Assembly: GCA_016178505.1 (NCBI GenBank)
Contig: JACOTG010000272.1
Span: 1 to 42,025, forward strand
Origin: Planctomycetota bacterium
Lineage (GTDB): Bacteria > Planctomycetota > JACOTG01
Length of the DNA: 42,025 bases
Reading direction: 5' to 3'
Below the pieces are notes generated by a model. It searched no databases, had not been told where the DNA came from, and saw only the letters and a list, made by a program, of their open reading frames with translations. This document shows, one piece after another, positions 199 to 36,277 of the stretch (within the stretch, counting starts at the first letter, position 1; each line of letters starts with the position of its first letter). Both the position numbers and the translations under genes were made by a program.

Positions 199-1464
199 TC
201 ACTGGATCTTCAAGATGACCGCGTTCGTGACGCTGTAGCCGAGAGGGCTGCTCGAGTTGTCGTCCTGGATCACAGCCTGCAACGTGAGTCGCGCGGCGCG
301 CGGGTAGCCGGAGTTTCGCGTGACCGTGAACGGCGCCGATGTCGGCCCCGGTAGGTGCCTGACGTTGTCGCAGTACTCGTCCGCCATGAGGGAACTCTTC
401 ATGCAACGGAAGGGCTGTGGCTGTGCCGTTGGATTGAACGGGGTCGGGTTCGCCGTGCAGCCGACGAGCATGTCCGTCACCCGGAGATCGAAGGGGTTCG
501 TCGGCAGGCCAGGCCACGTCCAGAGGACGTATTCGGCGGGATCCGGCCCGGACGGCGATGCAGCGAGCGTGATCGCGATCGGCTCCCCGATCGCGACCGT
601 GATGGTATCCGTCGCGCCGTTGACCGAAAGTACGGCCGCGGGGACGTCGTCGCCGGTGTTCACGTTCCCGACAAGGCAGTCCGTCACGGGATTGCAGCGG
701 AAGACCATGTCGTAATGAACGGGGCCCGACGCGGACGCGAGGCGCCACACGTAGTCGCCAGCGGGGAGTCCGACTTCGAGGCGCGCGCCGAGAATGCCGC
801 TTTCCGGGGTCACGTGGCTCGCCCCGAGGTACGTGCCGTCGCCTCTGTACAGCGTGAGCGTGTGATCCGACACCTCCGGAACCGTGAACACGTACGCGGC
901 GACGTGTGAAGCCGTGCCGACCGAGAAGCTCCAGTAGTCGAGATCGCTCGAGTCCGAGATGTCGCCGCCGAGTCCGCCGGGCACGCAGCTCGCGGGGCTC
1001 GCGGAGGCGATGTCGTCGTTCGGCTCGAGTTCCTCGACGATCGAGGGACAGAAGAAGCGCAGCGAGTAGCTGAACGTGTCGTCTGCGTTCTTCGCCGAGA
1101 CGCGAATGAAGTAGACCCCGGGCGCCTGATCGATTCGACCCAGATGGCTGCCGAGTCCCTCGCCGGAGTCGTCGTCCGAATCGATGAGCGTCGTTCCGTC
1201 CGACGCGAAGAGCTCGAGCAACGAGTCTCCGCTCGTGGTGGTGTAGAACGCGAGATCCGACGTCCGGTTCAGCGTCAGCCGGAATACGTCCTTGTCGCCG
1301 GCGGGCGAGATCGCCGCGGTGGCGAGATCGTTGCAGCGAACGACGTTCGCCGTTTCCGGCGTGTCGTTGGATTCGCTTTCCGGCACGCTCGCTGCGAATG
1401 CAGCTTCGGAGACGAGGGCGAGGACGAGAAGGGTCTTGGCGGCGTGTTCGAAGGGGTGACTCAC
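199..1464 (-). CDS. Secreted protein with two PPC (pre-peptidase C-terminal-like) domains followed by the shared C-terminal domain (CTD family member A)
   Basis: ORF 199..1641. The likely true start is the GTG at about 1464, giving a signal peptide VSHPFEHAAKTLLVLALVSEAAFAAS. Two PPC-like modules are present (ESNDTPETA..GDKDVFRLTL..GVYFIRV and EPNDDIASA..DLDYWSFSV..LTLYRGDG). The C-terminus has ..CTANPTPFNPTAQPQPFRC..GYSVTNAVILKIQ, conserved with four other proteins in the window. Confidence 0.8.
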   Translation of the reverse strand: MSHPFEHAAKTLLVLALVSEAAFAASVPESESNDTPETANVVRCNDLATAAISPAGDKDVFRLTLNRTSDLAFYTTTSGDSLLELFASDGTTLIDSDDDSGEGLGSHLGRIDQAPGVYFIRVSAKNADDTFSYSLRFFCPSIVEELEPNDDIASASPASCVPGGLGGDISDSSDLDYWSFSVGTASHVAAYVFTVPEVSDHTLTLYRGDGTYLGASHVTPESGILGARLEVGLPAGDYVWRLASASGPVHYDMVFRCNPVTDCLVGNVNTGDDVPAAVLSVNGATDTITVAIGEPIAITLAASPSGPDPAEYVLWTWPGLPTNPFDLRVTDMLVGCTANPTPFNPTAQPQPFRCMKSSLMADEYCDNVRHLPGPTSAPFTVTRNSGYPRAARLTLQAVIQDDNSSSPLGYSVTNAVILKIQ

Positions 1465-1727
1465 GTCTGTTCTCCGGATACGGCCTAAGGAGAAGAACGA
1501 ACGCACTCGGGCTGCAAGATCGCTTTCGCCGCGAGGGGGCGACGACGATGCGAACGCGCAGCCGAAGAATAGGTGACGGTCAGAAGTGGGTGTGAATCGG
1601 TGAACTCCCGAATGCTCGCAACATCGAGCCCTCGGCACCAAGAGTCCAAGGGCCGGGGAGTCTATCCCACGATTTCGCCATCGTCCAATCGCCCGGCGTC
1701 ACGCGGTCCGTTTCGAATCGGTCGCTC

Positions 1728-2342
1728 TCAGCGATTGCGAACGCCAGGATCCTTCTCGTAGGCGGAGCCCATCACGCAGAGCTGATGGAGCGTCTCGGCG
1801 AAGAGATCGAACATGCCTTTCAGCCGATTCACGTCCTTCACGATGCCGTGTATTTGGAAGTGAAGCTCGTCGACGCCCTCGGGGAATTGGGGTCCGAACC
1901 AGCCCTCGTCGTCCTTGACCTGAAAGTGGACGGCCGGCTGGGCGCGCAGGAGCTGGCGGATCTGCGCGCTCTGGAGCAGGGTCCGCACCTTCGCCTCGTC
2001 GTTTCCCTTGAAGATGAACGCGTCGTCCAGCTCGGAATCGCCGACCTCGATGTCTTGCATCCCGAAGCGCTTTCCCAAGCCGCTGAAGATCGTCTTCCGG
2101 TAGATCTCGAACCGGAATCCGTCGCGATTCACGTAAGGCGCTCGCAGGCGGGTGAACGGATGGCTCGACTTGCCCGTCGAAACCACGAAGACGTCGAGAG
2201 TCACGGTCCACTCGCCGACGTGCGCCTCGACGCGGCTTCTTTGCCACCAACGGCCGTCGACGAACTCGGCGCCGATCTGTCGGCTGAGGTCCCGCCACAC
2301 TTCGTCTCGACTCGGACCGAACAGCTTCCTCAGGATCGTCAT
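1728..2342 (-). CDS. Hypothetical protein (204 aa), immediately downstream of the Ser/Thr kinase on the same strand
   Basis: Balanced, non-Arg-rich composition in a correctly biased frame. The gap to the kinase stop is 22 nt. I recognise no domain. Confidence 0.5.
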   Translation of the reverse strand: MTILRKLFGPSRDEVWRDLSRQIGAEFVDGRWWQRSRVEAHVGEWTVTLDVFVVSTGKSSHPFTRLRAPYVNRDGFRFEIYRKTIFSGLGKRFGMQDIEVGDSELDDAFIFKGNDEAKVRTLLQSAQIRQLLRAQPAVHFQVKDDEGWFGPQFPEGVDELHFQIHGIVKDVNRLKGMFDLFAETLHQLCVMGSAYEKDPGVRNR

Positions 2343-2364
2343 GGGTCGTCTCCCGAAATCACGG

Positions 2365-4653
2365 TTAGTGTTTGTTCGACGTCGGAGCCGGCGGCCTCGC
2401 GACGAGCGGCGGAAGCCCTTCGTAGTCGATCCATCGCAGCGTCTCGATGTCCGGCAACAGCCCTCTCGCTTGTCCGGCCTTGTATTGATCGTTGGCGAAG
2501 CGGCGAGAGTCGTTGCCCGCTTCGTCGAGCACGAAACAAACCTCAGGCGGCCATCGAATCCCTTCGTTCTCCCAAACGCTTGCCGCGAGCGTCACGGCGC
2601 GCGGCGAAGTCAACTCGACGCCGCCCCAGTCGATCCGCGTGTGAATCGTGCGCAATGCCGCGAGGTTCTCGACCGGCCCGAGCCACTTGTACCAGACGAG
2701 CAAAGGGTCCTCGCGACGACCGCTTCGCACCAGGAAACGCTCGCGCTCGATGTGACCGTCCTCGACACGAAGCGCGAAAGCGACGATCGGATAGGGCATG
2801 TTCGGCAAGTCGAAGCCGTGCTCGTCCCATCGCGTTTCGCTGTTCATGCCGCTCATCACGAGCTCGTTCGATTCCCGCATCCAATGCACGCTGATGATCC
2901 CGCCGTCGTGCCAAGCGAGGAATCGCTCGTTGCCCACGAGGTCGAACACGCGAATCGCTTCCTGCGAGTACGGGGACGAATTCTCAACGACGACCACCTC
3001 GAGCCCCGGCGACCCCGGGATGAAGTCGTCGACGAGGAGATTGTCGGGAACGAAGTGAGCTTCGGGACGGCGCGGCACGCTCGAAGGCAGCTCCACTGGA
3101 CAGGCTGCGGACGTCCACACCGGATCGTTCGGTCGTTCGACGTCGTAGAAGCAGACGCGGCCCGCCATCGATCCATTGCCGGGCGCGAGCGAGTACGCGA
3201 CGACGGCAACGCGACCTCCGCCGAAGACCGACGAGCGGTCGACCATCGTCGCGCCGAGGATCGAGCCCTCCGCGCCGCCGCCCCACGTGTGCAGTCGGTA
3301 TCCAGTGACCGTTTCGAGGACAGCCGCGCGACGAGATGGGTCGACGCTCACGTGGCCGGGGCGTTGCTGGAGCCAGTAGATCCCGAGGGACGCCGTCAGT
3401 CCCACCGCCGCGAGCCCCACGACCAATCCCGCCGCGGCCGTCGTGACGAGCGGATGACGCGCCACCCAACGAACGGCTCGGCTCCATCTTCCCGGGAGGC
3501 GCGCGTCGATGGTCTCGCCCGCGAGATGGCGGCGCAGGTCGCGCGCCAGATCCGCGGCCGATTGATAACGGTTCTCTCGTCGCTTCTCGAGTGCCTTCAG
3601 GAGGATCGTTTCGATGTCGCCTCCGAGGCTTTTCGATATCTGGCTCGGCCGGAGCGGCGGCGTCGACACGACTTCCTTCGCCGCGCGCGCGATCGGAAGA
3701 TCGCGGACGTCGTACGGGAGACGCTCGCACGCGAGTTCGTAGAGCAACACGCCGAGCGAGTAGACGTCGCTTCGCACGTCGACGTCGTGCGGATGGCCGT
3801 CGGCCTGTTCCGGGCTGACGTACTGGATCGTCCCGAGGAAGTGCGCGTCGATCGTGAGGATCGTCGCGTTCGAGTCGTCGGGCGTGGTCGCGCGAGCGAT
3901 TCCGAAGTCGATCACCTTCGGTTGACCCGATGCGTCGACGAGGACGTTCGCCGGCTTGATGTCGCGATGGATGACGCCGCGTTGATGCGCGTGCTGCACG
4001 GCATCGCAGACGCTCGCGAAGAGACGGAGGCGCTCCCTCACGTCAAGCCCGGCGTCGCGCGCGTGCGCGAGCAGCGGCTTTCCGTCGACGAACTCCATCG
4101 AGAAGTAGGGTTGCGTGCCGAGCTCGGTTTCCGCCGTGCCGGCTTCGAAAATTTGCGCGATGCCGGGATGCTGGAGACGCGCGAGGATCGCCACCTCGGC
4201 GTCGAATCGGCGCAGAGTCCGCTCGGTCAGGAGACCTGGACGGATCACCTTCAGTGCGACGACTCGCCGCGTGTGTTGTTGCAGCGCGCGATAGACGACG
4301 CCCATTCCTCCTTGATCGATGACGCCGAGGATCTGGAAGGGACCGATAACGGCGGGATGGCGCTCGATCGGGCGAGCGCTCTCGACCTCGGCCGAGGCGC
4401 GCGCGTCGTCGTTGAAGAGCATCGCCTCGATCTCGGCGCGCAGCTCGAGGTCACCGCCGCAGGCTTCATCGAGGAAAAACGTACGCTGCTCGATCGCGAG
4501 GCGGCGGACTTCGAGAAACAGCTTGGGCAGGCGCTTTTCCCCTTCGGGCGTCATGTCGCGTCGCGTCCCCCCGTTTCGAGTCCTCGTCCGCGTGCGAGAC
4601 GAACGCAGTACTTCAATGAGAGGGATTCTCACCGACGCGATGGGCCGATTCAA
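2365..4653 (-). CDS. Membrane-anchored serine/threonine protein kinase with a large extracytoplasmic C-terminal domain
   Basis: Kinase motifs ALKVI (VAIK-like), HRDIKPANVLVD and DFGIA are present. The N-terminal region has ..FFLDEACGGDLELRAEIEAMLF.. typical of Acidobacteria-type STKs. One TM helix (VTTAAAGLVVGLAAVGLTASLGIYWL) is followed by about 330 aa of extracellular domain. The start may be the internal Met (MTPEGEK..). Confidence 0.9.
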   Translation of the reverse strand: MNRPIASVRIPLIEVLRSSRTRTRTRNGGTRRDMTPEGEKRLPKLFLEVRRLAIEQRTFFLDEACGGDLELRAEIEAMLFNDDARASAEVESARPIERHPAVIGPFQILGVIDQGGMGVVYRALQQHTRRVVALKVIRPGLLTERTLRRFDAEVAILARLQHPGIAQIFEAGTAETELGTQPYFSMEFVDGKPLLAHARDAGLDVRERLRLFASVCDAVQHAHQRGVIHRDIKPANVLVDASGQPKVIDFGIARATTPDDSNATILTIDAHFLGTIQYVSPEQADGHPHDVDVRSDVYSLGVLLYELACERLPYDVRDLPIARAAKEVVSTPPLRPSQISKSLGGDIETILLKALEKRRENRYQSAADLARDLRRHLAGETIDARLPGRWSRAVRWVARHPLVTTAAAGLVVGLAAVGLTASLGIYWLQQRPGHVSVDPSRRAAVLETVTGYRLHTWGGGAEGSILGATMVDRSSVFGGGRVAVVAYSLAPGNGSMAGRVCFYDVERPNDPVWTSAACPVELPSSVPRRPEAHFVPDNLLVDDFIPGSPGLEVVVVENSSPYSQEAIRVFDLVGNERFLAWHDGGIISVHWMRESNELVMSGMNSETRWDEHGFDLPNMPYPIVAFALRVEDGHIERERFLVRSGRREDPLLVWYKWLGPVENLAALRTIHTRIDWGGVELTSPRAVTLAASVWENEGIRWPPEVCFVLDEAGNDSRRFANDQYKAGQARGLLPDIETLRWIDYEGLPPLVARPPAPTSNKH

Positions 4654-4671
4654 GGCGGCCCGAGCGAGCGC

Positions 4672-5120
4672 CTACCGACGGCGGTTCGCGACGATCTTCG
4701 GGAACGACCGCGCGTGGATTTCGTCGATCGTGACGCCCGTCTTCGCCTTCGCCTCTTCCTCGGTGAGGGCGCCGCAGTTCACGGCACGCAAGAAGAAGTT
4801 CAACAGACCTTGGCCGGTCGCCGCATCGTCGAAGACTTCGCCAACGAGGGTTGCTCGTGCGGCGCTCTCCACGAAATGGCGGAGACGCTCGGCCGCCGCG
4901 TCGACGCTCTCGAAGAAGAACGCGTAGACCGCGAGTCCGCGCGGAAGAGATGCGCGCCGCCGTACACCGTGTGGATCGGTTGGCGACGCGTGGGTTCGCC
5001 CGGGTAGTGCGCCGACACCTCGGCATTGGCGCGCCGAACGCGCTCGAGTGCGGATCGCACGGCGTCGCCGGAAAAAGAAGTCGGTCGGTCCATCGCAAAG
5101 CCTCTCGGTTGGTTCGGCGT
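4672..5120 (-). pseudogene. Hypothetical protein interrupted by an apparent frameshift near 4990-5000 (two overlapping reading frames each carry half of a plausible protein)
   Basis: ORF 4800..5147 gives MDRPTSFSGDAVRSALERVRRANAEVSAHYPGEPTRRQPIHTVYGGAHLF with good composition, then becomes low complexity. ORF 4672..5172 becomes protein-like only from ..LAVYAFFFESVDAAAERLRHFVESAARATLVGEVFDDAATGQGLLNFFLRAVNCGALTEEEAKAKTGVTIDEIHARSFPKIVANRRR. This could be a genuine frameshift or a sequencing error. Confidence 0.35.
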
Positions 5121-5182
5121 GACGTCGATCGGATCCGCAAAAGGCATCGCTGCGCCGCCTCCCCCGCGCCACGGAGCCAGGG

Positions 5183-5300
5183 GTACGGAGCCAGGGTCAA
5201 CTCCGGCGGATTATTCCGCACTCGAACTCGGGATCGTAGCGTCGCCGACGGACCCCGCAACTGGGGAAAAATGTGGCGGAGTCGAGCCTGGCTCCGTACC
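5183..5300. repeat. Intergenic repeat element copy 1, about 118 bp with imperfect 19-bp terminal inverted repeats GTACGGAGCCAGGGTCAAC ... GTCGAGCCTGGCTCCGTAC, preceded by a partial tandem duplicate ACGGAGCCAGG
   Basis: It aligns closely with a second copy at about 8602..8717. Both ORF-track read-through translations show the same peptide, TEPGSTPADY..DP(A/E)TG(E/K)... Confidence 0.7.
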
Positions 5301-5860
5301 TCGAGTTTCGCCGCGGCGCGCTTCGCGTGCGGACCGACTTCTTCACGAGACCGCCGCGAATCTCGGCCTCCGCTCTCCGCCGACTCTGGAAGGAGCAAGA
5401 GGACCGAGATCCTCCGTTCGTAGGCCCGGTCGACCTCGCTCTGTTGAAGCAAACGGATCGAGAAAAGGACTACGCGGTGATCGGCGAGCTGGCGCGGTTG
5501 ATGGTCGATCCGAAAGAGCAGCTTCTCTTCTCGCGGAGTGCTCGCGACCTGATGCGACTCGGAGCCGAGCACGTCGAGTTGGCTCGGCGACTGTCGATAA
5601 AGCGACCGCTCCTGCGTCGTCTCGGCGGCACGCGGCAAGAGATCGAGCGCGAGCTCGACGCGGAGCGCCGCGCGTCGATGCGCGCGAACGAGCAACGCCT
5701 TTCGCGATTCGAGCGAGCGGCAAGGCGGTGGCGCGCCGCATGGGTTGGGGTCGACCGAGAGATCGCCGCGCTCCGCCTCATCGAAGCCCACCGGATCGTG
5801 GCGCGACGAGCCGTCGGTGTCTTGCCCTTTCGGGCGACGAGTGGGAGGTCACGACCGTGA
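5273..5860 (+). CDS. Hypothetical protein; the start is uncertain and the N-terminus overlaps the repeat element
   Basis: High GC3 and a protein-like composition (..DYAVIGELARLMVDPKEQLLFSRSARDLMRLGAEHVELARRL..). Its stop overlaps the GTG start of the next ORF (GTGA). Confidence 0.4.
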   Translation: MAESSLAPYLEFRRGALRVRTDFFTRPPRISASALRRLWKEQEDRDPPFVGPVDLALLKQTDREKDYAVIGELARLMVDPKEQLLFSRSARDLMRLGAEHVELARRLSIKRPLLRRLGGTRQEIERELDAERRASMRANEQRLSRFERAARRWRAAWVGVDREIAALRLIEAHRIVARRAVGVLPFRATSGRSRP

Positions 5861-6141
5861 GTGAGAAACGCGACGAGTTCTTGAGCGAGGAGGACCTCGA
5901 CCTTCGATCGCTTACGTTGAGAGAGCTGATCGCCTACTGGAACCTGTGGCTCAGGCAAGCGCAGGCGTCGAACGACCTCGATCGGCTCACCTACTCGCAC
6001 GGCGTCTTTCGAACCGAGCCCGACGTGCGGGCGCTGGCGCGAGCAGCGACGGCGAACAAGCCGCGCGAGCCGCGTCGCACGGCGTCGAGATCCGGCGGCA
6101 AGACCGTGCGTCGCTCGCGGGCGCCGCGCAAGCACCGCTGA
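5857..6141 (+). CDS. Small hypothetical protein (94 aa) with a GTG start overlapping the upstream stop
   Basis: VSEKRDEFLSEEDLDLRSLTLRELIAYWNLWLRQAQASNDLDRLTYSHGVFRTEPDVRALARAATANKPREPRRTASRSGGKTVRRSRAPRKHR reads as a structured N-terminus with a basic tail. GC3 bias is high and it sits in frame within ORF 5026..6141. Confidence 0.4.
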   Translation: MSEKRDEFLSEEDLDLRSLTLRELIAYWNLWLRQAQASNDLDRLTYSHGVFRTEPDVRALARAATANKPREPRRTASRSGGKTVRRSRAPRKHR

Positions 6142-6224
6142 ACTCACGTCGCCCATCCCACGATCGAGCAATCGCGACGTCGCCCTTGTTGGCGATGGGC
6201 GATCCAGTTCAGAATCCCGCCCCA

Positions 6225-7700
6225 ATGAAACGCTGGCTCACGCCGTGGCGAGTCGTCGGGTTCGCGGCCGGCATCGCGGCGTTCCTTGCGATCGCGCTCG
6301 CCGACTCGCCGCTCCACCACGTCGAGGGGATGGGGCGCCGCCCGGCGTACGCGGCCGCCGTCACGTCGCTCATGGCGATTTGGTGGCTCACCGAAGCGTT
6401 GCCGATCCTCGTCACCGCGTGCGTGCCGCTCGTGCTGTTCCCGCTGCTCGGCGTTTTTGGCGACGGCTTGGGCGTCAACGTTGGGAGCACAATGCGCCCC
6501 TACGTCGATCCGTACATCTGGCTCTTCATGGGCGGGATGGCGATCGCGGCCGCGATGCAGCAGTGGCGGCTGCACAAGCGCATTGCGCTTTCGATCATGA
6601 AGGCGATCGGCACCGAGCCGAAGCGGCTCTTGCTGGGGCTCCTCGTCGCGACGGCGTTCATCTCGCTTTGGATCTCGAACACGGCGACTGCCACGATGAT
6701 GCTGCCGATCGGGCTCGCGATCATCGCGCAGCTCGAGGCGCAGTCGGGCGGCCGGCGGCTCGAGCACTACGGCGCGTCGCTGATGCTCGCGATCGCGTAC
6801 GCCTCGAACGTCGGCGGCATCGGCACGAAGGTCGGCACCGCGCCGAACACGCAGTTCGCGGGCTTCTGCTCGCAGAACCTCGGCATCGAGGTCTCGTTCC
6901 TGAAGTTCGTGGCGCTCGGCCTTCCGTTCGTCGCGATGTTCCTGCCGATCGTCTGGTGGGCGCTGTGGCGTACGGGCCGGCACGATGCACCGCACTCGTC
7001 TGCGTCGGTCGTCGAGCGCGAGCTCGCCGCGCTCGGCCCGATGCGTCGCGAGGAAAAAGCGGTGCTCGGCATGTTCCTCGTGACCGCCGCGTTGTGGATC
7101 TCGAGCCAACCGATCACGGCGATGCTGCGGCCGCTGGGCAACGGCATCGTTTCCGATTTCGGCTCGAAGTACGTCGAAGGGACGATTGCGATCGTGGCGG
7201 CGCTCGTGCTCCTCGCGACGCGACTCCTCGATCGGCGACAACTGCGTACCGTCCCATGGCTGACGCTGATCCTTCTCGGCGGCGGCTTCTCCATGGCGGC
7301 GGGGATCGAGAAGAGCGGGCTGTCGTCGTGGCTCGGAAGCGAGCTTCGGGTGCTCCGCGACGTGCCGCCGGTCGCGCAGGTCGCGGTGGCGAGCTTTGCT
7401 GCCGTCGGGCTCAGCGCGGTGTGCTCGAACTCCGCGACGGTCGCCGTGATGCTCGGCGTTCTCTACCGCGCCGTGTCGCGCACGGAGGTGATGAGCGCGC
7501 TCGCCGCGACGACGCTCGGCGCCTCGTGCGACTTCATGCTCCCCGCGGGCACGCCGCCAAACGCCATCGTCTTCGGCAGCGGCTATCTCACGATCCGGCG
7601 CATGGCAAAGACGGGCGTCGTGCTCGACCTTCTCGCGGCCACGCTCGTCGCGATCTGGTGCTCGATCGTGACACGATTCCTCTTCGCGACGCCCGCATGA
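6225..7700 (+). CDS. DASS/SLC13 family anion:sodium symporter (sulfate/di- or tricarboxylate permease type)
   Basis: It is polytopic, with the hallmark SNTATATMMLPI and a second SNSATVAVMLGV repeat typical of DASS/SLC13 transporters. The start is set at MKRWLTPWRVVGFAAGIAAFLAIALA (ATG 6225), in frame with ORF 5946..7700. Confidence 0.85.
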   Translation: MKRWLTPWRVVGFAAGIAAFLAIALADSPLHHVEGMGRRPAYAAAVTSLMAIWWLTEALPILVTACVPLVLFPLLGVFGDGLGVNVGSTMRPYVDPYIWLFMGGMAIAAAMQQWRLHKRIALSIMKAIGTEPKRLLLGLLVATAFISLWISNTATATMMLPIGLAIIAQLEAQSGGRRLEHYGASLMLAIAYASNVGGIGTKVGTAPNTQFAGFCSQNLGIEVSFLKFVALGLPFVAMFLPIVWWALWRTGRHDAPHSSASVVERELAALGPMRREEKAVLGMFLVTAALWISSQPITAMLRPLGNGIVSDFGSKYVEGTIAIVAALVLLATRLLDRRQLRTVPWLTLILLGGGFSMAAGIEKSGLSSWLGSELRVLRDVPPVAQVAVASFAAVGLSAVCSNSATVAVMLGVLYRAVSRTEVMSALAATTLGASCDFMLPAGTPPNAIVFGSGYLTIRRMAKTGVVLDLLAATLVAIWCSIVTRFLFATPA

Positions 7701-8593
7701 GTGAGATCGCGCTGCGAGTGCGCGGGCCGCTCGACGTCGCGGCGACGCTGGCGCGCTATCGCCGCTTCGGCGACGACCCAACGAACGCGTTCGCCGGCGA
7801 TTCGCTCGTTCGCGCGCTGCGCGTCGAGGGCGAGGTCGTGCCGTACGAGGTGCGCTGGTCCGGGCCCGTCGATGACGTGCGTCTCGCGGCGCGCGTCTCC
7901 GGGCGTGCGCGTGCGCGCGTCGTGGACGCCGTCACCGCCGACGTCGAGAGGGTCTTCGGGCTCGGCTTCGACATCGACGGCTTCTACGCGATGGCGAAAC
8001 GGGACCGCGTGCTCTCTCCGCTCGTTCGCCGGCACCACGGCTTCCGCCCGACGCTCGGGTCGAGTGCGCTCGAGAGCCTCGTGGGCGCGATCGTCGCTCA
8101 GCAGGTGAATCTCACGTTCGCGTTCCGACTGCGCGAGCGGCTCGTGAGGCGGTGGGGCACCGAAGCGTCGTTCGCGCGAAGCAGGGTCTTCGCGTTCCCC
8201 GAGCCCTCGACGATCGCGCGAGCACTGCTGGCCGAACTTCGAGCGATGCACTACTCGCAACGGAAGGCCGAGTACGTGATCGAGGTCGCGCGCGCGCTCG
8301 CATCCGGATCGCTGGAGGCGGCCGCACTCGCGGCGTCCGACGACGCGACCGTGATCGAACGACTCACGGCGATTCGAGGGATCGGCCGCTGGTCGGCCGA
8401 TTGGTACCTCGCGCGCCACCTCGGCCGGGGCGCCGTGTGTCCCGCCGGTGACCTCGCCGTGCGCAAGGCGTTCGTCCGCTTCTGCGGCATCGCGCCGACC
8501 GCCCGCGAGGACGCCATCCGAAAGCGCTCCGCGGCGTGGGGCGCGCACCAAAACCTGGCAATCCACTACCTCCTCGCCGGGCTGCGGACGTGA
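7697..8593 (+). CDS. alkA: DNA-3-methyladenine glycosylase II-like (AlkA / HhH-GPD superfamily) base-excision repair glycosylase
   Basis: It has an AlkA-like N-terminal domain (MSEIALRVRGPLD..) and an HhH-GPD region (..LTAIRGIGRWSADWYLARHLGRGAVCPAGDLAVRKAF..). The ATG overlaps the transporter stop as ATGA. Confidence 0.75.
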   Translation: MSEIALRVRGPLDVAATLARYRRFGDDPTNAFAGDSLVRALRVEGEVVPYEVRWSGPVDDVRLAARVSGRARARVVDAVTADVERVFGLGFDIDGFYAMAKRDRVLSPLVRRHHGFRPTLGSSALESLVGAIVAQQVNLTFAFRLRERLVRRWGTEASFARSRVFAFPEPSTIARALLAELRAMHYSQRKAEYVIEVARALASGSLEAAALAASDDATVIERLTAIRGIGRWSADWYLARHLGRGAVCPAGDLAVRKAFVRFCGIAPTAREDAIRKRSAAWGAHQNLAIHYLLAGLRT

Positions 8594-8601
8594 ACCCACG
8601 C

Positions 8602-8717
8602 GTACGGAGCCAGGGTCAACGCCGGCGGATTATTTCACACCCGAACTCTTGACGGTCGCGACGCCGTCGGATCCCGAGACTGGGAAAAACGTGGTGGAGT
8701 TGAGCCTCGCTCCGTAC
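8602..8717. repeat. Intergenic repeat element copy 2 with terminal inverted repeats GTACGGAGCCAGGGTCAAC ... GTTGAGCCTCGCTCCGTAC
   Basis: It is about 80% identical to copy 1 over roughly 116 bp and lies between alkA and the next gene. Confidence 0.7.
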
Positions 8718-8828
8718 TCGGCAAATGGACCGCAAAGCCACGCGCTAGTTAGCGTCGCCCGGGATATCATTCAGCCGGCGTCCGCATCGCCAGCCGTGCG
8801 AAGCCCGCATGAGAAGAGAGGAACGGTC

Positions 8829-10166: not shown

Positions 10167-10181
10167 GCACGAGATGGCGCG

Positions 10182-10601
10182 GTGCCCATCGGCGAAAGAG
10201 CTTTTGACGAAGACAAGCCCTGCGAAGAAGGCCCCGCGTTGTTGAAGCGATCACGAACAGCGCGTCCCGACATTGCCATTGGCGTCGTTCTTGCGAAGTG
10301 CGAGTACGAGGCCTGGTTTCTTGCTGCAGCGGAGTCGTTACGAGGAACAGACCGGCTTCGTTCGGATCTGACGTCACCATCTGATCCAGAAGGCGTGACC
10401 GGCGCGAAGGGATGGCTGAGCAGGAACATGCGGGGGAGTTCGTACAGACCGACAGCAGACCACGCAGGCCTGACGCGGGACTTCGACCTCGATCAAGCCT
10501 GGGCGCGCTCTCCCTCCTTCGACAAGTGCCATCGCGAAGTCACTCGCCTGCTCACCGAGTTGCACGAGAAAGCCAAGGAGCAGTCACCGCCCAGCGCCTA
10601 G
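10182..10601 (+). pseudogene. C-terminal fragment of a DUF4276-family protein (its N-terminal region is missing), probably a remnant of a two-gene ATPase + DUF4276 locus
   Basis: ..IAIGVVLAKCEYEAWFLAAAESL.. and ..YRPTADHAGLTRDFDLDQAWARSPSFDKCHREV.. resemble the conserved HEFEAxLF and C-terminal motifs of DUF4276 as I remember them. The ORF begins 15 nt after the upstream stop and has no partner ATPase gene. It is compositionally lower in GC than its neighbours. Confidence 0.4.
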
Positions 10602-11986: not shown

Positions 11987-12220
11987 GAGACTTTGCGCCA
12001 AGGCCTGGTCCTTTTCGCGAGATGGAATCGACGAGGCGCCGATCATACCGCGGCAATTCGCGCGATTCTCGCGCGTCGCGCCATCGGCACGCGATTCGAG
12101 TCTCTTGGACTCCCGAAGTCCGACCGTTCCGGTTGTGGCGGTCGCCACGACGAGGCCGCTGCGTTCGCTCGCATCGAGCGACTCGATGCGAGCGACGGGC
12201 ACGAAGAAAGGCAGGCAGCC

Positions 12221-14290: not shown

Positions 14291-14304
14291 GTCGTAAATC
14301 TCGA

Positions 14305-14340
14305 GCGCGTGCCGGCGGCCTTCGAGTCGCCGGCACGCGC
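14305..14340. terminator. Perfect 13-bp inverted repeat hairpin (GCGCGTGCCGGCG-N10-CGCCGGCACGCGC) between convergent genes; candidate bidirectional intrinsic terminator
   Basis: It sits 15 nt after the flotillin stop and about 95 nt from the stop of the convergent minus-strand gene. There is no strong U-tract on either side, so termination efficiency is uncertain. Confidence 0.45.
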
Positions 14341-14433
14341 CATTCCATCGGCGCCTCGCTCGGGCCGCCGAACCCTTCGATGCCGGCTCCGACCCGACCC
14401 GCCGAATCGCCGTGTGTCCAGTCGGACGCCGTG

Positions 14434-19201: not shown

Positions 19202-19369
19202 GGCTGCCTCCTTGTGAGAAGCACGTCGCCTTTCGGCGATACCGGGCTTCGGTTCTCCTGGTGGAATCACATTGAGCGGCGGGCGCTCAGCCGGATCGAT
19301 CCAACTTCGCGCGCGGCCAAGATCGATGGCGGAGTATGCTCCCGCTCGCGCGCGAATCGCAATCGGAAA

Positions 19370-28400: not shown

Positions 28401-28770
28401 CGACGAGTGGACGGCGTCCGACGGCGAGGCGTTCAGCGAGGGATTCCGGCGGCTCGGGCTCGGCAAGGTGATCGGCACGCGCACGTGGGGCGGCGAGATC
28501 TGGCTCAGCTCGAGCAACTTCCTCGTCGATCGCGGGATCGCGACGGCGGCCGAGTACGGCGTGTTCGGGCCGGAGGGCAAGTGGCTGATCGAGGGCCGCG
28601 GCGTCGAGCCGGACATCGTCGTCGACAACCTGCCGCACGCGACCTTTCAGGGCAAGGACGCGCAGCTCGAGGCCGCGGTCGACGAGCTGAAGCGGGAGAT
28701 CGCGGCGAGCCCCGTCGTGCTGCCGCCGGTGCCGGCGCATCCGGACAAATCCCTGAAGGCGGGGCGATGA
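25480..28770 (+). CDS. Tricorn protease homologue (peptidase S41B) with N-terminal beta-propellers, a PDZ-like region and a C-terminal S41 catalytic domain
   Basis: The N-terminal TolB-like propeller repeats are ..SPDGSTLAFV.., ..GKLLYSTD.. and ..MNLWSMTADGKDLRQLT... The C-terminal S41 region is ..GNIDSWILEKLLRKAWFYWSERVG..VVVLCDEWTASDGEAFSEGFRRLGLGKVIGTRTWGG... A length of 1096 aa is typical of bacterial tricorn homologues. Confidence 0.85.
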   Translation: MMVQSSLLFAVASLLSPGGEPQGYYRSPAIHGDTIVFSSEGDLWKVPTKGGVATRLTSHPGEESDPAISPDGSTLAFVAEYEGPREIYTMPLNGGLPTRRTFDASRVDVAGFTPDGKLLYSTDAYSTLPQSQLVKLDLASGERVVIPLAQASDGVTDDSGKTLFFTRLPFQGSHTKRYQGGTAQNLWRFADGDAEATPLTADYAGTSKNAMWWKGRVYFASDRDGTMNLWSMTADGKDLRQLTYHVGLDVAHPSLSDGKIVYQLGADLHVVDVASGAGTAEGSPIAITLTSDFDQTREHWVAKPMDYLTTAHLSPDGDRLVLTARGRVFVAPQKQGRFVETTRAGGVRYRVARFLPDGKSLVAMSDESGEIELWKLPANGVGAGEQLTTDGEVLRWDALPSPDGAWIAHYDKNWRLWIWDVKAKTDRKIDESTIADFEGLRWSPDSRWLAYVTPSDNFLERIKLWRASDGSITFATTDRFDSSSPAWSPDGQWLYFLSARHLETVVSSPWGNYQPEPYLDKTTKIYQLALKTGLRSPFAPNDELHPAKPKDEKKDDKDKKDEKKADDAKPPVPEVVVDLAGIEKRLLELPVPAGNYANLSVNDKALFFERTDVSASKTSLVAVAVGNENVEVKEAVSDIRSSELSADGKKMLVRKGDALYVVDAPVGPVSAEDLEKKKVDLSAWKMSVSPREEWRQMFTEAWRLERDYFYDRGMHGVDWKAMLKKYLPLVDRVRTREELSDLIAQMVSELSALHIFVHGGDRRHGSEEIDPASLGARLVRDPARGGYRVDHVYQTDPDEPDQLSPLARPGVDVKDGDVIDSIDGVAALAVPDLALLLREKANRQVLLHVKPASGEERDVIVMPVDGGRARDLRYDEWEYTRRLAVDQLGGGDIGYVHLRAMGRDNWTEWAKGFYPVFTRKGLVIDVRHNQGGNIDSWILEKLLRKAWFYWSERVGRAPSWNMQFAFRGHVVVLCDEWTASDGEAFSEGFRRLGLGKVIGTRTWGGEIWLSSSNFLVDRGIATAAEYGVFGPEGKWLIEGRGVEPDIVVDNLPHATFQGKDAQLEAAVDELKREIAASPVVLPPVPAHPDKSLKAGR

Positions 28771-28821
28771 TGCTCGTGCGCGGCGCGACCGAATCCTCGA
28801 CTTCGTGATCGCGGTGCGCAA

Positions 28822-29010
28822 GTGACCACTCCCAACGAGACCACGGCGTCCCCTTATCTCGGCGCGAGCGTGGAATCGTACGACTCGCTCATTCGACGCG
28901 CCGTGCCGCAATACGACGAGATGACCGCGCGACTCGTCGACTACTTGCCGCCGACGGCCGCGCGCGCGCGCTCGAGCTCGAATGCGGGACGGGCAGTTCC
29001 TCGACGTCGT
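28822..29010 (+). pseudogene. N-terminal remnant of a class I SAM-dependent methyltransferase (truncated or frameshifted)
   Basis: MTTPNETTASPYLGASVESYDSLIRRAVPQYDEMTARLVDYLPPTAARA is followed, after a frame change, by ..RALELECGTG.., which is motif I of SAM methyltransferases. No sequence encoding the rest of the fold follows. Confidence 0.3.
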
Positions 29011-29116
29011 CGACGGCGAGATCCTGAGGCTCGATTGGAAGAACAGGCTGGCGGGCCACGCCACCTTCGGCTCTACTGGTCGTGGCGCCACGGGGCGCAG
29101 AAGGAGAAGACGGCCG

Positions 29117-31183
29117 GTGTTCGATCGAAGCGGAGCAAGTCGATGGGCGCGACTCTCCGCGATCGGCGGCGCGACGATTCTCGCCATCACGAGTTTTGCC
29201 GCAGGTCAAACGACGACTCGAATCAGCCTCGATTCCACGGGACACGAAATTCCCGGCGACTGCTTCGGCGTCATCTCGGCTAATGGGCGGTTCGTCGCGT
29301 TTCGGGCGGAAGCGGCGGGCGTCACTCCAGACGACACGGATCGAGCGCCCGACATCTTCGTCCGCGATCTCCTGACCGGCGCGCTGTCGCGCGTCAGCGT
29401 GTGGACGGACGGAAGCGATACCTACGGTTACAACTATTTCGAGTCCATCTCCGGCGATGGGCGCTTCGTGTCGTTCACGAGCCAGGTCTCAAACAGTGTT
29501 TTCGGCATTCTCATCCACGATCGCGATCCGGATCACGACGGCGTCTTCGACGAGGAACACGGCGAGACCACGATGGAGAGCGTGAACGATGACGGAGATC
29601 AGGCGAATGGCTCCTGTCGCGGTAGCTCGATTTCGGACGACGGACGCTTCGTCGCCTTCGAAAGCGTGGCGACGAACCTGGTGACCAACGATTCGAATCT
29701 GACGGACGACGTCTTCGTGCGCGATCGCTATGCCGGTGGAACGGTCTGCGCGAGCGTGAATCCTTCCGGTCGGCCGGGCAACGGATCAAGCGGCGCCCTG
29801 AACACGTTCGCCATCTCGGCGAATGGTCGCTACGTCGTTTTTCGAAGCGAAGCGAGCGATCTCGTCGACGGTGACACCAACGTGTTGGCAGACGTGTTCG
29901 TTCGCGACATCCAGACCCGAACCACGACGCGTGTGACCCTCGACTCCTCAGGCGAACAGGTGAACGGTTCTGCGGGGTGGGCCGTCGCGATATCCGCGGA
30001 CGGACGCTGGATTGTGTTTTCGGACACCGCGTCGAACATGGTTGCCGCAGACACGAACGGAAGAGAGGACGTCTTTGTCCGTGACATGCTGACCGGCACG
30101 AACTCTCGTGTGAGTGTGAACTCCGCGGGAGACGAAGCGGACGACTACAGCTACGTGTCGTCGATCTCGCCCGACGGACGGTTCGTCGCCTTCACGAGTC
30201 GAGCGCGCAATCTCGTGTCCTCCGCTACTGCCCCTTGGCTCGAGGTGTATCTCCACGACCGATGGAACGGTGAGACGGAACTCGTGAGCCAGGCCACCGC
30301 CGGCGTGCCGGCCGTCACGTACAGTGACGGCGGATCGGTTTCGGCGAACGGGCGATACGTCGTCTTCTACTCCAACGATTCGAACCTGGTGCCGCACGAC
30401 ACAGTTGGCTACTACGACGTTTTTCTGCGGAGTCGGTGGTCCGTGCGCGTCGCTTCGGTGATGCCCGCGTCGGGATCCGAGAGCGGCGGTGACTTCGTGC
30501 ACATCCGGGGCGAGGGGCTGACGAGCAGCGCGGCCACGAGCGTGACGATCGGCGGGGCGACGGCGACGATCGTGTCGGCCGCGTACGACGAGGTCACGGC
30601 GTGGACGCCGCCCGGGCGCGGCGTTGCGGACGTGATCGTGACGAGCGGCAACGATTCGTCCACGCTCCCGGCCGCGTTCACCTACGTCGACTCCCCGATC
30701 GCAGCGCGCTGGGGCGACGTTGGGCAAGGGCAGGGGACTCGCGAGAGCGTGCTCCTGCTGAACGCGACTTCGGGCGATTCGCTGTCTCGAGAAGTGCGCG
30801 TGCCGCGGAATCAGCCGATCCTTCTCGTGATGCTTCCGCCATCGACCCGGGCGACGGCGCGATTCGTCCTCTACGTTTGGGATCACCATCCAACAGCGAC
30901 GACGCTCACGACCTTGCCCGCTCATCTCGGCCGCAGCGTCTTTCCGCTGCCATTCCGTAGCGGGACGCCGCAACCGCGCGTGATCTGGAACAACGTCGGC
31001 TATCGGCAAACGCTCGGCGCGCCGACGTTCGCGTCGCAGCCGGCACCGTTTGTCGTTGCGAACCGCGCAAGCGGAATCGCAGGTGCCGTACGGCTCACGT
31101 TTCAGGGACTGATCGAAGATCCGGCGTCGCAGAGCCCGACCGGTTTCTCGGTGACGAACGCGATCCTTCTGCGGGTCGAGTAG
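29117..31183 (+). CDS. Secreted TolB-like beta-propeller + IPT/TIG domain protein ending in a divergent copy of the shared CTD (CTD family member D)
   Basis: The likely GTG start gives a signal peptide (V/M)FDRSGASRWARLSAIGGATILAITSFAAGQ; the ORF track starts at 28982. PD40-type repeats (ISANGRFVAFRAE..DIFVRD, ISDDGRFVAFESVATNLV..DVFVRDR and others) are present. The IPT/TIG-like module is ..SVMPASGSESGGDFVHIRGEGL..TIGGATATIV.. The C-terminus has ..FVLYVWDHHP..TPQPRVIWNNVG..GFSVTNAILLRVE. Confidence 0.75.
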   Translation: MFDRSGASRWARLSAIGGATILAITSFAAGQTTTRISLDSTGHEIPGDCFGVISANGRFVAFRAEAAGVTPDDTDRAPDIFVRDLLTGALSRVSVWTDGSDTYGYNYFESISGDGRFVSFTSQVSNSVFGILIHDRDPDHDGVFDEEHGETTMESVNDDGDQANGSCRGSSISDDGRFVAFESVATNLVTNDSNLTDDVFVRDRYAGGTVCASVNPSGRPGNGSSGALNTFAISANGRYVVFRSEASDLVDGDTNVLADVFVRDIQTRTTTRVTLDSSGEQVNGSAGWAVAISADGRWIVFSDTASNMVAADTNGREDVFVRDMLTGTNSRVSVNSAGDEADDYSYVSSISPDGRFVAFTSRARNLVSSATAPWLEVYLHDRWNGETELVSQATAGVPAVTYSDGGSVSANGRYVVFYSNDSNLVPHDTVGYYDVFLRSRWSVRVASVMPASGSESGGDFVHIRGEGLTSSAATSVTIGGATATIVSAAYDEVTAWTPPGRGVADVIVTSGNDSSTLPAAFTYVDSPIAARWGDVGQGQGTRESVLLLNATSGDSLSREVRVPRNQPILLVMLPPSTRATARFVLYVWDHHPTATTLTTLPAHLGRSVFPLPFRSGTPQPRVIWNNVGYRQTLGAPTFASQPAPFVVANRASGIAGAVRLTFQGLIEDPASQSPTGFSVTNAILLRVE

Positions 31184-31411
31184 TCGCCGCGCCGCAGTAC
31201 GAGTCCGACGGTCAGCGCGGGCCAGCCTGGATTTCCCCCGGGAGGACGTCGCCCGCCTTCGTCGCGACAGCGAGACGCGACTCCGATTGCCGCTTCCCCA
31301 CCGGAGCGCGCCGCACAGTCCGTTGCCGACCGGCGTCGCCTCGTCCCACGAATCGATCGGCGCCGCGAGCGAGACGACGTCGGGGATTCGCGTCGATGGA
31401 ATCGCGCCCGT

Positions 31412-33430: not shown

Positions 33431-33610
33431 GGTTGATCCTCGGCGGAAGTTTTGGCGCGTCAGTCTAACCGAATGTCATTGGCCGAAGCGCAGCCGTTCG
33501 GCTCCATAGATGGCGCGAGGCGACGTCTCGGATAGACTGCTTCACAAAGGTCACGAAGCGGGGGACCTCGATTCACTCGGCGTCGAGTCGCCTGCCAGGA
33601 GAGCCCGACG

Positions 33611-36277
33611 ATGACCCACGAACCACAGTCGCATTCACCCGTCCGCTTCTTTTTCATCACGGCCCTCACGCTTGCGATCTCGACCGCGGTCGCGTCGGCT
33701 CAAAGCCCGTGTGCGGAATGGGCTCCGGGGTTGACCTCGTTTCCGGGCGTCGACGGCGTCGTGTATGCGTCGACCGTCTTCGACGACGGCACTGGCCCAG
33801 CGCTTTACGTCGGCGGCATCTTCTCGTCGGCCGGCGGTGTGGCCGCTCGCAACATTGCGAAATGGAATGGATCGGGCTGGTCGTCGCTCGGCGGGGGAGT
33901 CGGCGGAGGCTATCAGTCGATCCACGTGATGGCGGCGTTCGACGACGGCACGGGCCCCTCGCTCTACGTCGGCGGCGAACTCACGGATGCGGCGGGCATA
34001 CCGGTTCAGCATCTCGCGCGATGGAACGGCCACCAGTGGTCGGATCCGGCGTCGTTCATGAATGGCAACGTCGAGAGTCTCGGCGTCTACGACGACGGCA
34101 CGGGGCCTGCGCTGTTCATCGGAGGAGACTTCACGACCGCGGGCGGTGGCATCGGAAATCACATCGCAAAATGGGACGGCCGACAGTGGTCGTCGCTCGC
34201 CACCGGCGTCGACGGCCCGGTCCTCGGACAGACCGTCTTCGATGACGGCAGCGGCTCGGCGCTCTACGTCGTCGGCAACTTCGCGCTGTCTGGTTCCGTG
34301 TACAGCAATGGCGTCGCGCGATGGAATGGCACGGCGTGGTCTCGACTCGGGGCGGGAGCGGCGTCGTACTATCCGTGGTGCGCGGTCGTTTTCGACGACG
34401 GCACCGGCCCGGCGCTCTACGTGGCCGGCCCGTTCCACATGATGGACGGCATTCCGATGAACGGTTTCGCCCGGTGGAACGGGCACGAGTGGTCGTCGCC
34501 GCCGAACGGTGAGGGAACTCGATTGATGACCGTCTGGGACGATGGCACCGGCCCGGCCATCTTCTCTTCGGGGACCGGAACCATTCGGAAGTGGGATGGC
34601 CATCAATCCTCGACGGTACCAGGTGCACCGGGCCCATCAACTCTCACGGTGTACGATGACGGGAGCGGCGCCGCGCTCTTCGTCGGCGGAGACTTCACCC
34701 TCATTGGCGGCGCGTTCGTTCCGTTCATCGCGAAGTGGAACGGCGCGACGTGGTCGACGCTTGGGACTTTCGCCGGACCCAACGGTTGGACGAAGAGCAT
34801 CGCCAGCGCAGACGATGGCACGGGCCCGGCCGTGTACGTGGGAGGTGACTTCGGCGCCGTCGGGCAGGTGGCGGCGAATCACATCGCGCGATGGAACGGG
34901 ACGACATGGTCGCCACTCGGCCTCGGGATCGACGGCTTTCGCGATGCGACGGTTTCTGCAATTGCGGCTTTCGACGACGGCACCGGACCCGCGGTGTATG
35001 CAGGTGGATCGTTCTCCACCGCTGGCGAAATGCCGGCGTCCAACATTGCGAAGTGGAATGGGAGCACGTGGTCGCCGCTCGGGAGCGGTCTGAACGACCG
35101 TGTGCTTGCTCTCACGTCGTTCGACGACGGCAGCGGACCGGCACTCTACGTCGGCGGTCCGTTCCGCACGGCGGGAGGGGTACCGGCGGCGTACGTTGCG
35201 CGCTGGAATGGAAGCGCATGGTCCACGGTTGGCCGCGAGGCGACTGGAAGCATCGTCGCGTTCACCCTGTTCGATGGCGGAAGCGGTCCCTCATTGTGCG
35301 CACTCGGCGCGTTCACCTTCGGCTTCGGAGTCGCTCGGTGGACCGGCGTGAACTGGTCACCCGTGGGCGCTTTTTTTATGGGCAGTGGTTCGTCGTTGAC
35401 CGTGTTCGACGACGGCACCGGACCGACGCTCTATGCCGGTAACACGTACGGGGTCTCGCGGTGGAATGGGATCACTTGGGCGAACCTCGGAAGCGGAATG
35501 GATGATCGCATCCTTTCGCTCGCGACGTTCGACGACGGATCGGGCGCTGCGCTGTACGCGGCCGGACGGTTTCGGCACGCGAACGGCGTCGCGGCGAATA
35601 AGATCGCGCGATGGAATGGCACCTCGTGGTCGTCGCTCGCCGAGGGCTTGGGAGGCACGCCTCAGTCGGAGGTTTGGGCACTTGCGACGTTCAACGACGG
35701 CACCGGGCCGGCACTTTGTGCGGCGGGCACGTTCGTCACGGCGGGAGGTTTTGCCTCGCGCTTCTGCGCGCGCTGGGAAGTCGCACCGCGACGCGGAAAC
35801 GTGAGTGCGCGAATTGGCGAGACCGCAGACGTCGTTTACGTGAACGGATCCGCGGGCGACGCGACGCGAACCGTCACCGTCGGCCTCAGCCGATCGATTG
35901 ACGTCGAGCTGCGCGCGGCGCCCGGCGGGCCGTCTCCTGCACGCTATGTCTTGTGGAGCTGGCTCGGCGAACCGCAGCAACCGGTCGAGCTTCGAGTCGG
36001 CAGTTCGTCGCTCGGTTGCGTCGTGAACCCGACGCCGCTTCAGCCTGCGCAGATTCCGCAACCGTTTCGGTGCCTGCGAGGCCGGCTGGTTCCGCGAGCC
36101 GCGTGCAGCGGCGTGATCGAGGTCCCGAGCCCGGCAGCCGCGCCGTGGAGCCTGCACTTGCCGCAAGGCGTCGGCGCGCCGGTGGTGGTGACGCTGCAAG
36201 GCCTCATTCGCGACAAGAGCGCTCTGCATCCGTCGGGCTACAGCGTGACCAATGGCGTCATCCTGCGAGTCCGCTGA
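33611..36277 (+). CDS. Secreted protein with about 15 Kelch-like beta-propeller repeats ending in the shared CTD (CTD family member E); paralogue of 20270..22966
   Basis: Signal peptide ..VRFFFITALTLAISTAVASAQSP. It has the same repeat consensus (A.WNGs.WSsLG.G..g.v.a...FDDGTGPaLYvGG.F..AGG..a). The C-terminus has ..LGCVVNPTPLQPAQIPQPFRC..GYSVTNGVILRVR. Confidence 0.8.
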   Translation: MTHEPQSHSPVRFFFITALTLAISTAVASAQSPCAEWAPGLTSFPGVDGVVYASTVFDDGTGPALYVGGIFSSAGGVAARNIAKWNGSGWSSLGGGVGGGYQSIHVMAAFDDGTGPSLYVGGELTDAAGIPVQHLARWNGHQWSDPASFMNGNVESLGVYDDGTGPALFIGGDFTTAGGGIGNHIAKWDGRQWSSLATGVDGPVLGQTVFDDGSGSALYVVGNFALSGSVYSNGVARWNGTAWSRLGAGAASYYPWCAVVFDDGTGPALYVAGPFHMMDGIPMNGFARWNGHEWSSPPNGEGTRLMTVWDDGTGPAIFSSGTGTIRKWDGHQSSTVPGAPGPSTLTVYDDGSGAALFVGGDFTLIGGAFVPFIAKWNGATWSTLGTFAGPNGWTKSIASADDGTGPAVYVGGDFGAVGQVAANHIARWNGTTWSPLGLGIDGFRDATVSAIAAFDDGTGPAVYAGGSFSTAGEMPASNIAKWNGSTWSPLGSGLNDRVLALTSFDDGSGPALYVGGPFRTAGGVPAAYVARWNGSAWSTVGREATGSIVAFTLFDGGSGPSLCALGAFTFGFGVARWTGVNWSPVGAFFMGSGSSLTVFDDGTGPTLYAGNTYGVSRWNGITWANLGSGMDDRILSLATFDDGSGAALYAAGRFRHANGVAANKIARWNGTSWSSLAEGLGGTPQSEVWALATFNDGTGPALCAAGTFVTAGGFASRFCARWEVAPRRGNVSARIGETADVVYVNGSAGDATRTVTVGLSRSIDVELRAAPGGPSPARYVLWSWLGEPQQPVELRVGSSSLGCVVNPTPLQPAQIPQPFRCLRGRLVPRAACSGVIEVPSPAAAPWSLHLPQGVGAPVVVTLQGLIRDKSALHPSGYSVTNGVILRVR

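Follow-up and report, generated by a model that had tools for sequence, protein, structure and literature searches.

A previously uncatalogued C-terminal domain family of secreted proteins in uncultured, mostly Planctomycetota-labelled bacteria, with a possible role in surface anchoring

Introduction

Shared C-terminal domains that address or anchor many different exported proteins are already of a known kind. The closest described systems are the dockerins, the C-terminal domains (CTDs) of the type IX secretion system (T9SS), the short sorting signals, and the macroglobulin (MG), immunoglobulin (Ig) and FN3 domains. Here, we analyzed the 42,025-bp contig JACOTG010000272.1 of a Planctomycetota bacterium (assembly GCA_016178505.1), hereafter the window, i.e., the whole stretch under study, in which five predicted secreted proteins, A to E, end in a common domain of ~160-165 amino acids, hereafter the tail. 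In contrast to the kind of module to which it may belong, the tail family itself is new.

Dockerins, including the GC-type dockerin of Phycisphaerae and Planctomycetota (NF041540), resemble the tail in that they are C-terminal, present in a single copy, and borne by many Sec-exported carriers, whether catalytic or not. However, dockerins are Ca-binding helical repeats of ~60-70 residues, whereas the tail is modelled as a disulfide-bonded beta-sandwich of ~165 residues, and neither PF00404 nor NF041540 matches the tail. The T9SS CTDs (Por_Secre_tail, TIGR04183/PF18962; type B, TIGR04131) are Ig-like sandwiches located at the extreme C-terminus, with the terminal strands most conserved, and they occur on diverse secreted proteins, many per genome; all of these traits are shared with the tail. 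The tail differs from them in being approximately twice as long and in its cysteine pairs, and no HMM (hidden Markov model) of these CTDs matches it, even when Pfam matches with E ≤ 10 are included. The short sorting signals (PEP-CTERM/exosortase, LPXTG/sortase, GlyGly-CTERM/rhombosortase and CFI-box-CTERM) likewise place one type of tail on many cargo proteins, but they consist of ~25-40 residues with a transmembrane (TM) helix and a basic end, whereas the tail has neither and is predicted to be a folded globular domain.

Little is known of the ways in which Planctomycetota and related uncultured lineages bring their very large repertoires of extracellular proteins (propellers, adhesin-like proteins and enzymes) to the outer membrane or past it. 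The tail marks a defined set of exported proteins and thus offers a handle with which a partner, be it a receptor, a scaffold or a translocon, could be sought by phylogenetic profiling.

Five proteins of the window end in the same domain

The original prediction, made from the sequence of the window, proposed that five proteins with signal peptides and unrelated N-terminal parts share a C-terminal domain of ~140 residues. An HMM built from the extracted tails was searched against all six reading frames of the window and recovered exactly these five proteins, with E-values from 1e-67 to 1e-78 and each match ending at a stop codon; no sixth copy was found in these frames, where the next match had an E-value of only 0.4. 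The five tails align over their full length (the last ~165 residues); 27 columns of the alignment are invariant, and identity to tail A ranges from 32 to 44%. The shared tail in the window is genuine and far exceeds what chance would produce, although at ~160-165 residues it is longer than first proposed.

Gene A (199-1641, minus strand) encodes one or more PPC domains (Pfam PPC, E 3e-08) followed by the tail (nt 202-693; HMM E 2.9e-77), which ends at the stop codon; the G+C content at its third codon positions (GC3) is 0.82, and its true start is probably near nt 1464. Gene B (17462-19270, minus strand) joins a PD40 beta-propeller (Pfam PD40, E 5.7e-21) to the tail (nt 17465-17959; E 2.1e-72) and probably starts at the ATG at nt 19201. 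Gene C (20270-22966, minus strand) carries a Rax2/DUF5122-type propeller array, as assigned by Pfam, and a tail (nt 20273-20785; E 3.5e-78) in which the first core cysteine is missing. On the plus strand, gene D (28982-31183) combines PD40 and IPT/TIG domains (Pfam TIG, E 2e-10) with a tail (nt 30677-31180; E 5.7e-67) of a cysteine-less 'IWNN' subtype; its true start is probably nt 29117, and the database entry P0050 is protein D beginning at 'MFDRSG'. Gene E (33611-36277, plus strand) again encodes a Rax2/DUF5122-type propeller array by Pfam, and its tail (nt 35768-36274; E 1.6e-78) was the one chosen for structure modelling. The products of genes C and E, MBI1853560.1 and MBI1853566.1, are both labelled 'hypothetical protein' in the database.

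All five genes are coding as judged by their codon-position G+C content (GC3 0.77-0.82), and all five translations begin with a hydrophobic, signal-peptide-like N-terminus. The proposed signal peptides and differing architectures were thus borne out by these N-termini and by the Pfam assignments (PPC, PD40, Rax2/DUF5122, and PD40 plus TIG). In all five proteins, the tail directly follows the cargo, without a linker. The G+C content is 65-69% across the whole contig, and near-identical proteins of the contig genes (MBI18535xx, locus tags HYR85_) are present in a sibling metagenome-assembled genome (MAG; locus tags HY292_).

Between the tail genes lie a Kelch-repeat gene (24414-25445, plus strand) and a gene for a Tricorn-type PD40/PDZ/S41 protease (25480-28770, plus strand), both without the tail; therefore, propeller proteins of this genome do not carry the tail as a rule.

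Extent of the family and its carriers

An exhaustive HMMER search of 1.84 billion representative proteins (50% clustering) identified 2,030 family members at E ≤ 1e-3, 1,590 at E ≤ 1e-10 and 763 at E ≤ 1e-30; a word-indexed search retrieved only 13 relatives. The family is defined by the signature G.VN...DVL.VNG...YVLW.W...LG(C).NPTP...PQP..(C)...(C)...APW...TLQG...D......SVTNA..L.V, by its C-terminal position and by a signal peptide on the carrier, and all five window tails fit this definition.

Among the 155 representatives that were read, the tail ends 0-5 residues before the stop codon in 153, and none has two copies of the tail. An internal position is thus far from being as frequent as a C-terminal one, and what the original prediction noted for the five window proteins, a domain always at the extreme C-terminus, extends to these representatives with two exceptions. 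One of them, P0097, has a low-quality read-through after the tail. The other, P0116 (MBI3843422.1 and MBI1852102.1, one from the MAG of the window and one from its sibling), is the only clear case of a different position and consists of a signal peptide, the domain, a Gly/Pro linker and a right-handed beta-helix. P0116 is a genuine gene, as its length is identical in the two MAGs, and it indicates that a mature protein may begin with the domain, which in that position is able to function or at least to fold.

Approximately 95% of the full-length members have a signal-peptide-like N-terminus. Based on 76 full-length members, the cargo includes PD40 (19 members), Rax2 (10), FG-GAP (8), HYR (6) and DUF5122 (6), more rarely TIG (4), LamG (2) and GBD_T9SS_assoc (2), and, in single cases, M23 peptidase, VWA, beta-helix, GSDH, CHRD and other domains. 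At least 25 kinds of extracellular domain carry the tail, most of them non-enzymatic modules of the surface or adhesin type. NCBI names the carriers 'hypothetical protein' or after their N-terminal domains, and a description of the tail family would help to annotate thousands of such 'hypothetical proteins'.

The scan of genomes and metagenomes with the five tails used a strict 10-residue pattern, so the following genome and contig counts are lower bounds. With one genome per GTDB species, the tail was found in four assemblies, of which OFTM205 (16 seed loci) and CAZQZX01 are labelled Planctomycetota and the other two simply 'bacterium'. Metagenome contigs added five long, high-GC loci and one contig with 48% G+C (Ga0080064_1000240), on which positions 2-10396 hold four tandem genes of ~600-950 codons, all ending in the tail (locus L033). 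The G+C content of the genomes with the family ranges from 48 to 71%.

The window and the related loci, 464 kb together, contain 56 tail-bearing open reading frames (ORFs), approximately one per 8 kb, many of them in tandem. The complete copies in the related loci are strictly C-terminal save for two instances, the gene at 6912-10925 of L013 and a partial copy in L004. No window tail is closest to another window tail; instead, their nearest relatives are tails on the same type of cargo elsewhere, i.e., PD40 proteins for B, propeller proteins for C and E, and HYR/TIG carriers for D. This grouping by cargo type indicates that the fusions are old, with no recent shuffling or homogenization within genomes. 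Concerted evolution of the tails within a genome, which would be a sign of a genome-specific receptor, was considered and rejected for the same reason.

Absence from domain catalogues

No Pfam family (2025 copy) covers the tail in the five window proteins, in the five tails searched separately at E ≤ 10 or in the 76 relatives, and the precomputed Pfam annotation of the homologues, which includes families up to PF26660, is blank over the tail. None of the Ig-like, lectin or carbohydrate-binding module (CBM) families of Pfam (Big_x, PKD, FN3, CBM_x) matches it. NCBIfam release 20, sorting-signal models included, gave no match on the tail at E ≤ 1; the sole match of TIGR04183 (E 0.014; 15.3 bits against a cut-off of 23) falls on residues 131-186 of protein A, which belong to the PPC region. 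A profile search of all PDB sequences returned only de novo designed Ig proteins, the best with an E-value of 0.065, and a full-text literature search found no description of the tail domain or of MAG OFTM205.

The suggestion that the family was undescribed has therefore held against Pfam, NCBIfam and the PDB sequences. The tail was also correctly set apart from the PEP-CTERM, LPXTG and GlyGly-CTERM signals, since it ends in ..SVTNAVILR[VI][QNER] with no TM helix and basic tail, and from the T9SS tails, since TIGR04183 does not match it. The tail is a genuine, previously uncatalogued domain family of uncultured bacteria, mostly labelled Planctomycetota.

Conserved positions and predicted fold

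The core motif of the original prediction, NPTP with three cysteines, has to be revised: tail D has no such core, tail C lacks its first cysteine, and the canonical tail has four cysteines rather than three, the additional one opening the domain ('C..G.VN'). Among 205 members, the cysteine patterns were CCCC (110),.CCC (25), ..CC (22) and none (21). The third and fourth cysteines co-occur, which suggests that the canonical tail holds two disulfide bonds, with C1-C2 and C3-C4 as the predicted pairs. Approximately 10% of the members, D included, have no cysteine. The cysteine-less subtype, with '..PQPR.IWNN.G..LG' in place of the core, is common to D, P0007, P0010, P0011 and P0013, and in D, P0007 and P0010 it is preceded by a TIG-like segment.

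In the numbering of tail E, Q144 and N162 are kept in 99-100% of the members, G83 and D149 in 99%, W65 and S159 in 96%, and T161 in 94%. Conservation is densest in the loops and in the terminal hairpin. The invariant Gln, Thr and Asn residues brought to mind an intramolecular Thr-Gln ester or isopeptide cross-link; this idea was dropped because no His or Lys is conserved and because Q144 and N162 are merely cross-strand neighbors in the final hairpin.

The original prediction had asked whether the tail might be a beta-sandwich. The AlphaFold2 (AF2) model of tail E is all-beta, with a predicted local distance difference test (pLDDT) score of 94.5 and a predicted template modelling (pTM) score of 0.90, and shows an Ig-like sandwich of two sheets that superposes on Ig, FN3 and MG domains. 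The structural comparison gave no specific relative of the tail beyond the Ig/FN3/MG class. Based on this model, the tail is predicted to be an autonomous, disulfide-stabilized, Ig-like beta-sandwich of ~165 residues.

Other tails on homologous cargo

Using the cargo parts alone as queries, we compared the C-termini of the best 119 homologues of the E propeller and the best 120 homologues of the B propeller. None of the 119 E-propeller homologues (~40-50% identity) bears the tail described here. Dockerin-type tails, recognized with an ad hoc dockerin HMM, occupy the same slot in 54 of these 119 Rax2/DUF5122 propellers, and the NCBIfam model NF041540 ('GC-type dockerin domain-anchored protein') matches 15 of the 58 that were scanned. 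Eight of the 119 end in another uncatalogued, Cys-rich domain, hereafter the Y-type domain; P0389 has a T9SS-like 'YPNPF' tail, a TM helix with a basic tail is present in one or two homologues (clearly in P0384), and others have short basic tails. With the ad hoc dockerin HMM, no dockerin tail was found in the window or among the loci with tail genes.

Among the 120 B-propeller homologues, one bears the tail and 48 bear the Y-type domain. Further homologues terminate in CFI-box-CTERM or TM+RRR tails, which fill the slot of the tail on these PD40 proteins, in short '..YLPLILK' tails or in RTX repeats. In P0194, P0208, P0234, P0256, P0219 and P0254, a motif '..(F/Y)LP(L/I)(I/V)(L/V)(K/R)' follows directly after the last PD40 blade, resembling a short C-terminal signal.

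The Y-type domain comprises ~150-175 residues, is strictly C-terminal, and was observed among P0156-P0275 and P0289-P0407 (e.g., P0156, P0174 and P0289). It ends in '..YYRDP..LGGCP..STFNATQTG.V.W.P' or '..VQAWFRDPP..K.T.LSDAL....P', and neither Pfam nor NCBIfam matches it. Its AF2 model is also an Ig/FN3/MG-like sandwich. As in the window tail, a long final hairpin lies at the same position, with a comparable end motif (Q/Y..RD ... [ST].[ST]N[AG]....), whereas the cysteine pattern, CPC...GC, is different. Despite the similar last hairpin and fold class, homology between the two domains is unproven, as the hhalign probability is 0.6-7.5% and the HMMs do not cross-match.

The finding that homologous cargo ends elsewhere in dockerins, anchors or other domains suggests that the C-terminal position of these proteins is an anchoring or targeting slot, filled here by a new domain. 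The tail thus allows alternative solutions on the same cargo to be compared, namely dockerins, membrane anchors and another uncatalogued tail.

Possible roles of the tail

We tentatively favor the possibility that the tail is a shared address or anchoring module that binds one common partner in the envelope and thereby holds or assembles its carriers at the cell surface. Sec would export each carrier by virtue of its N-terminal signal peptide, and the tail, with its four cysteines in the canonical form, would fold in the oxidizing periplasm or outside the cell. A putative invariant surface, composed of the Pro-rich NPTP/PQP loops and the last hairpin ('..TLQG...D......SVTNA..'), could then bind the common partner, which may be a protein (receptor or scaffold) or a glycan of the envelope, and carriers with propellers, FG-GAP or HYR domains or enzymes would be kept at the surface in this way. 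The tail would play the part that dockerins play on these cargo families in sister Planctomycetota lineages, following a dockerin-like logic without dockerin ancestry. The concentration of conserved residues in loops and in the terminal hairpin, with G83, Q144, D149 and N162 near-invariant, fits a single common partner, and the equivalence of slots on homologous cargo is the best indirect support for a role in targeting or anchoring. The N-terminal copy in P0116, the paired cysteines and the absence of a linker speak for a binding module that stays on the protein rather than an export signal that is cut off.

Several points weigh against this anchoring role. The equivalence of slots is an argument by analogy, and the modelled fold is a generic Ig-like sandwich that is uninformative on function. 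Neither the window nor the 464 kb of related loci yielded a partner, scaffold or cohesin-like gene near the tail genes; the neighbors there are kinases, transporters and proteases without an obvious link to the tail. Additionally, the tails cluster by cargo and not by genome, which gives no sign of co-evolution with a genome-specific receptor. The broader interpretation put forward originally, that the tail is a sorting, secretion or anchoring tag, receives indirect support from the dockerins and anchors of the cargo homologues; no dedicated sorting enzyme or translocon was found in the window and the 464 kb of related loci. A cargo tag or anchor is plausible but unproven.

A different explanation is that the tail is an export or sorting signal, recognized in the periplasm by a dedicated outer-membrane pathway and possibly cleaved or exchanged for an anchor, according to the logic of T9SS. 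The traits held in common with T9SS CTDs (Ig sandwich, extreme C-terminus, one copy per protein, many paralogues, last strands most conserved, diverse Sec-dependent cargo) speak for it, as do the 'YPNPF' tail of P0389, a homologue of the C and E cargo, in the same slot, and the GBD_T9SS_assoc domain in two carriers. We nevertheless consider it unlikely: TIGR04183 has no match on the tail, which is twice the size of a T9SS CTD, the window and the 464 kb of loci contain no translocon or sortase-like gene, and none of the T9SS machinery genes (PorU, PorV, Sov/SprA, PorK-N) is among the neighbors in the contig and the ~20-kb loci. The N-terminal instance in P0116 also argues against a signal of this kind, the cysteine pairs and the direct junction of cargo and tail, with no cleavage motif, point to a domain that is retained, and T9SS is not known in Planctomycetota. 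A bolder proposal, which we regard as similarly improbable, is that an uncultured Planctomycetota lineage has an undescribed sorting pathway with the tail as its recognition domain, in which the folded tail would hand proteins to a dedicated outer-membrane translocon or attachment enzyme. Such a pathway would serve dozens to hundreds of Sec-exported proteins per genome and would be a functional counterpart of T9SS or of the exosortase system built from unrelated parts, and the Y-type tail would represent a sister system elsewhere.

Two further explanations dispense with a partner in the producer's own envelope. As a lectin- or CBM-like module, the tail would bind an external substrate, such as a polysaccharide or the surface of another cell. 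The beta-sandwich and its invariant residues (W, Q, D, S, T and N), which are typically seen together in sites for sugars or Ca, would suit such a function, some carriers are enzymes (M23 peptidase, beta-helix, GSDH), and in one case, P0116, the position is flexible; however, no CBM or lectin family matches the tail, and the carriers are mostly non-enzymatic propellers and adhesin repeats rather than carbohydrate-active enzymes. The tail is never tandem or internal, unlike most CBMs, and the same cargo elsewhere bears anchors or dockerins instead of CBMs, which makes this explanation a rather remote one. Least probable, in our judgment, is a passive structural or oligomerization domain, that is, a stabilizing stalk or cap that a few old gene families have passed on, with no common partner. 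Old fusions, as indicated by the clustering of tails by cargo type, cargo and tail without a linker, and a generic Ig-like sandwich as found in spacer domains would all be expected from it. On the other hand, at least 25 unrelated cargo families share the tail, polar residues and loops are invariant across paralogues that are only 30-45% identical, in a manner unlike pure spacers, and Ig domains that serve as spacers mostly occur internally or in tandem, unlike the single, terminal tail. If the tail were only a binding or structural module, the gain would be a new domain family and better annotation.

Neighboring genes

When all ORFs of the window and of 30 related loci were clustered, the only frequent neighbor of the tail genes was a Ser/Thr kinase, present in 13 of the 30 loci. 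In the window, it is encoded beside gene A (2365-4653, minus strand), and it lies within 850 bp of a tail gene in nine loci (the window, L001, L002, L011, L012, L015, L017, L022 and L029). The 464 kb contain 14 Ser/Thr kinases, several of them paired with a Planctomycete-type extracytoplasmic function (ECF) sigma factor (PF07638). The adjacency may reflect a regulatory link, or it may reflect only kinase-rich genomes. The kinases and ECF factors were rejected as dedicated partners of the tail, as they are signalling genes and not sorting machinery. CHAT-TPR, ABC exporter and PQQ-propeller genes were also set aside as partners, since they recur in only three or four loci, and so was the repeat-Ig (CarboxypepD_reg) gene directly downstream of E, which is unrelated to its look-alike neighbor in L022. 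Genes for CHAT (caspase-like) or TPR-CHAT proteins adjoin tail genes in L003 (804-1208), L008 (4340-6751) and L026 (10709-11824), in at least two organisms.

The other genes of the window include a Na/sulfate symporter, a sigma-54 activator, a cell-wall hydrolase, YdjM, the Kelch protein and the Tricorn-type protease, together with a SASA esterase, the CarboxypepD_reg repeat protein, an S10 peptidase and TauE. The ORF at 4672-5172 (minus strand, 166 codons) matches only the last 83 of the 408 positions of the DUF6986 model, and the region 4654-5945, which yields no clean gene call, may represent a truncated or frameshifted gene. The long ORF at 10598-15577 (minus strand, 1659 codons) has its response-regulator, sigma-54 activator and HTH_8 domains only in the 3' part (nt ~10640-11970). 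An opposing ORF on the plus strand (11540-14290) has a better GC3 and a Band_7/SPFH match at nt ~13187-13730; since it overlaps the upstream part of the long ORF, the latter is probably for the most part antisense read-through.

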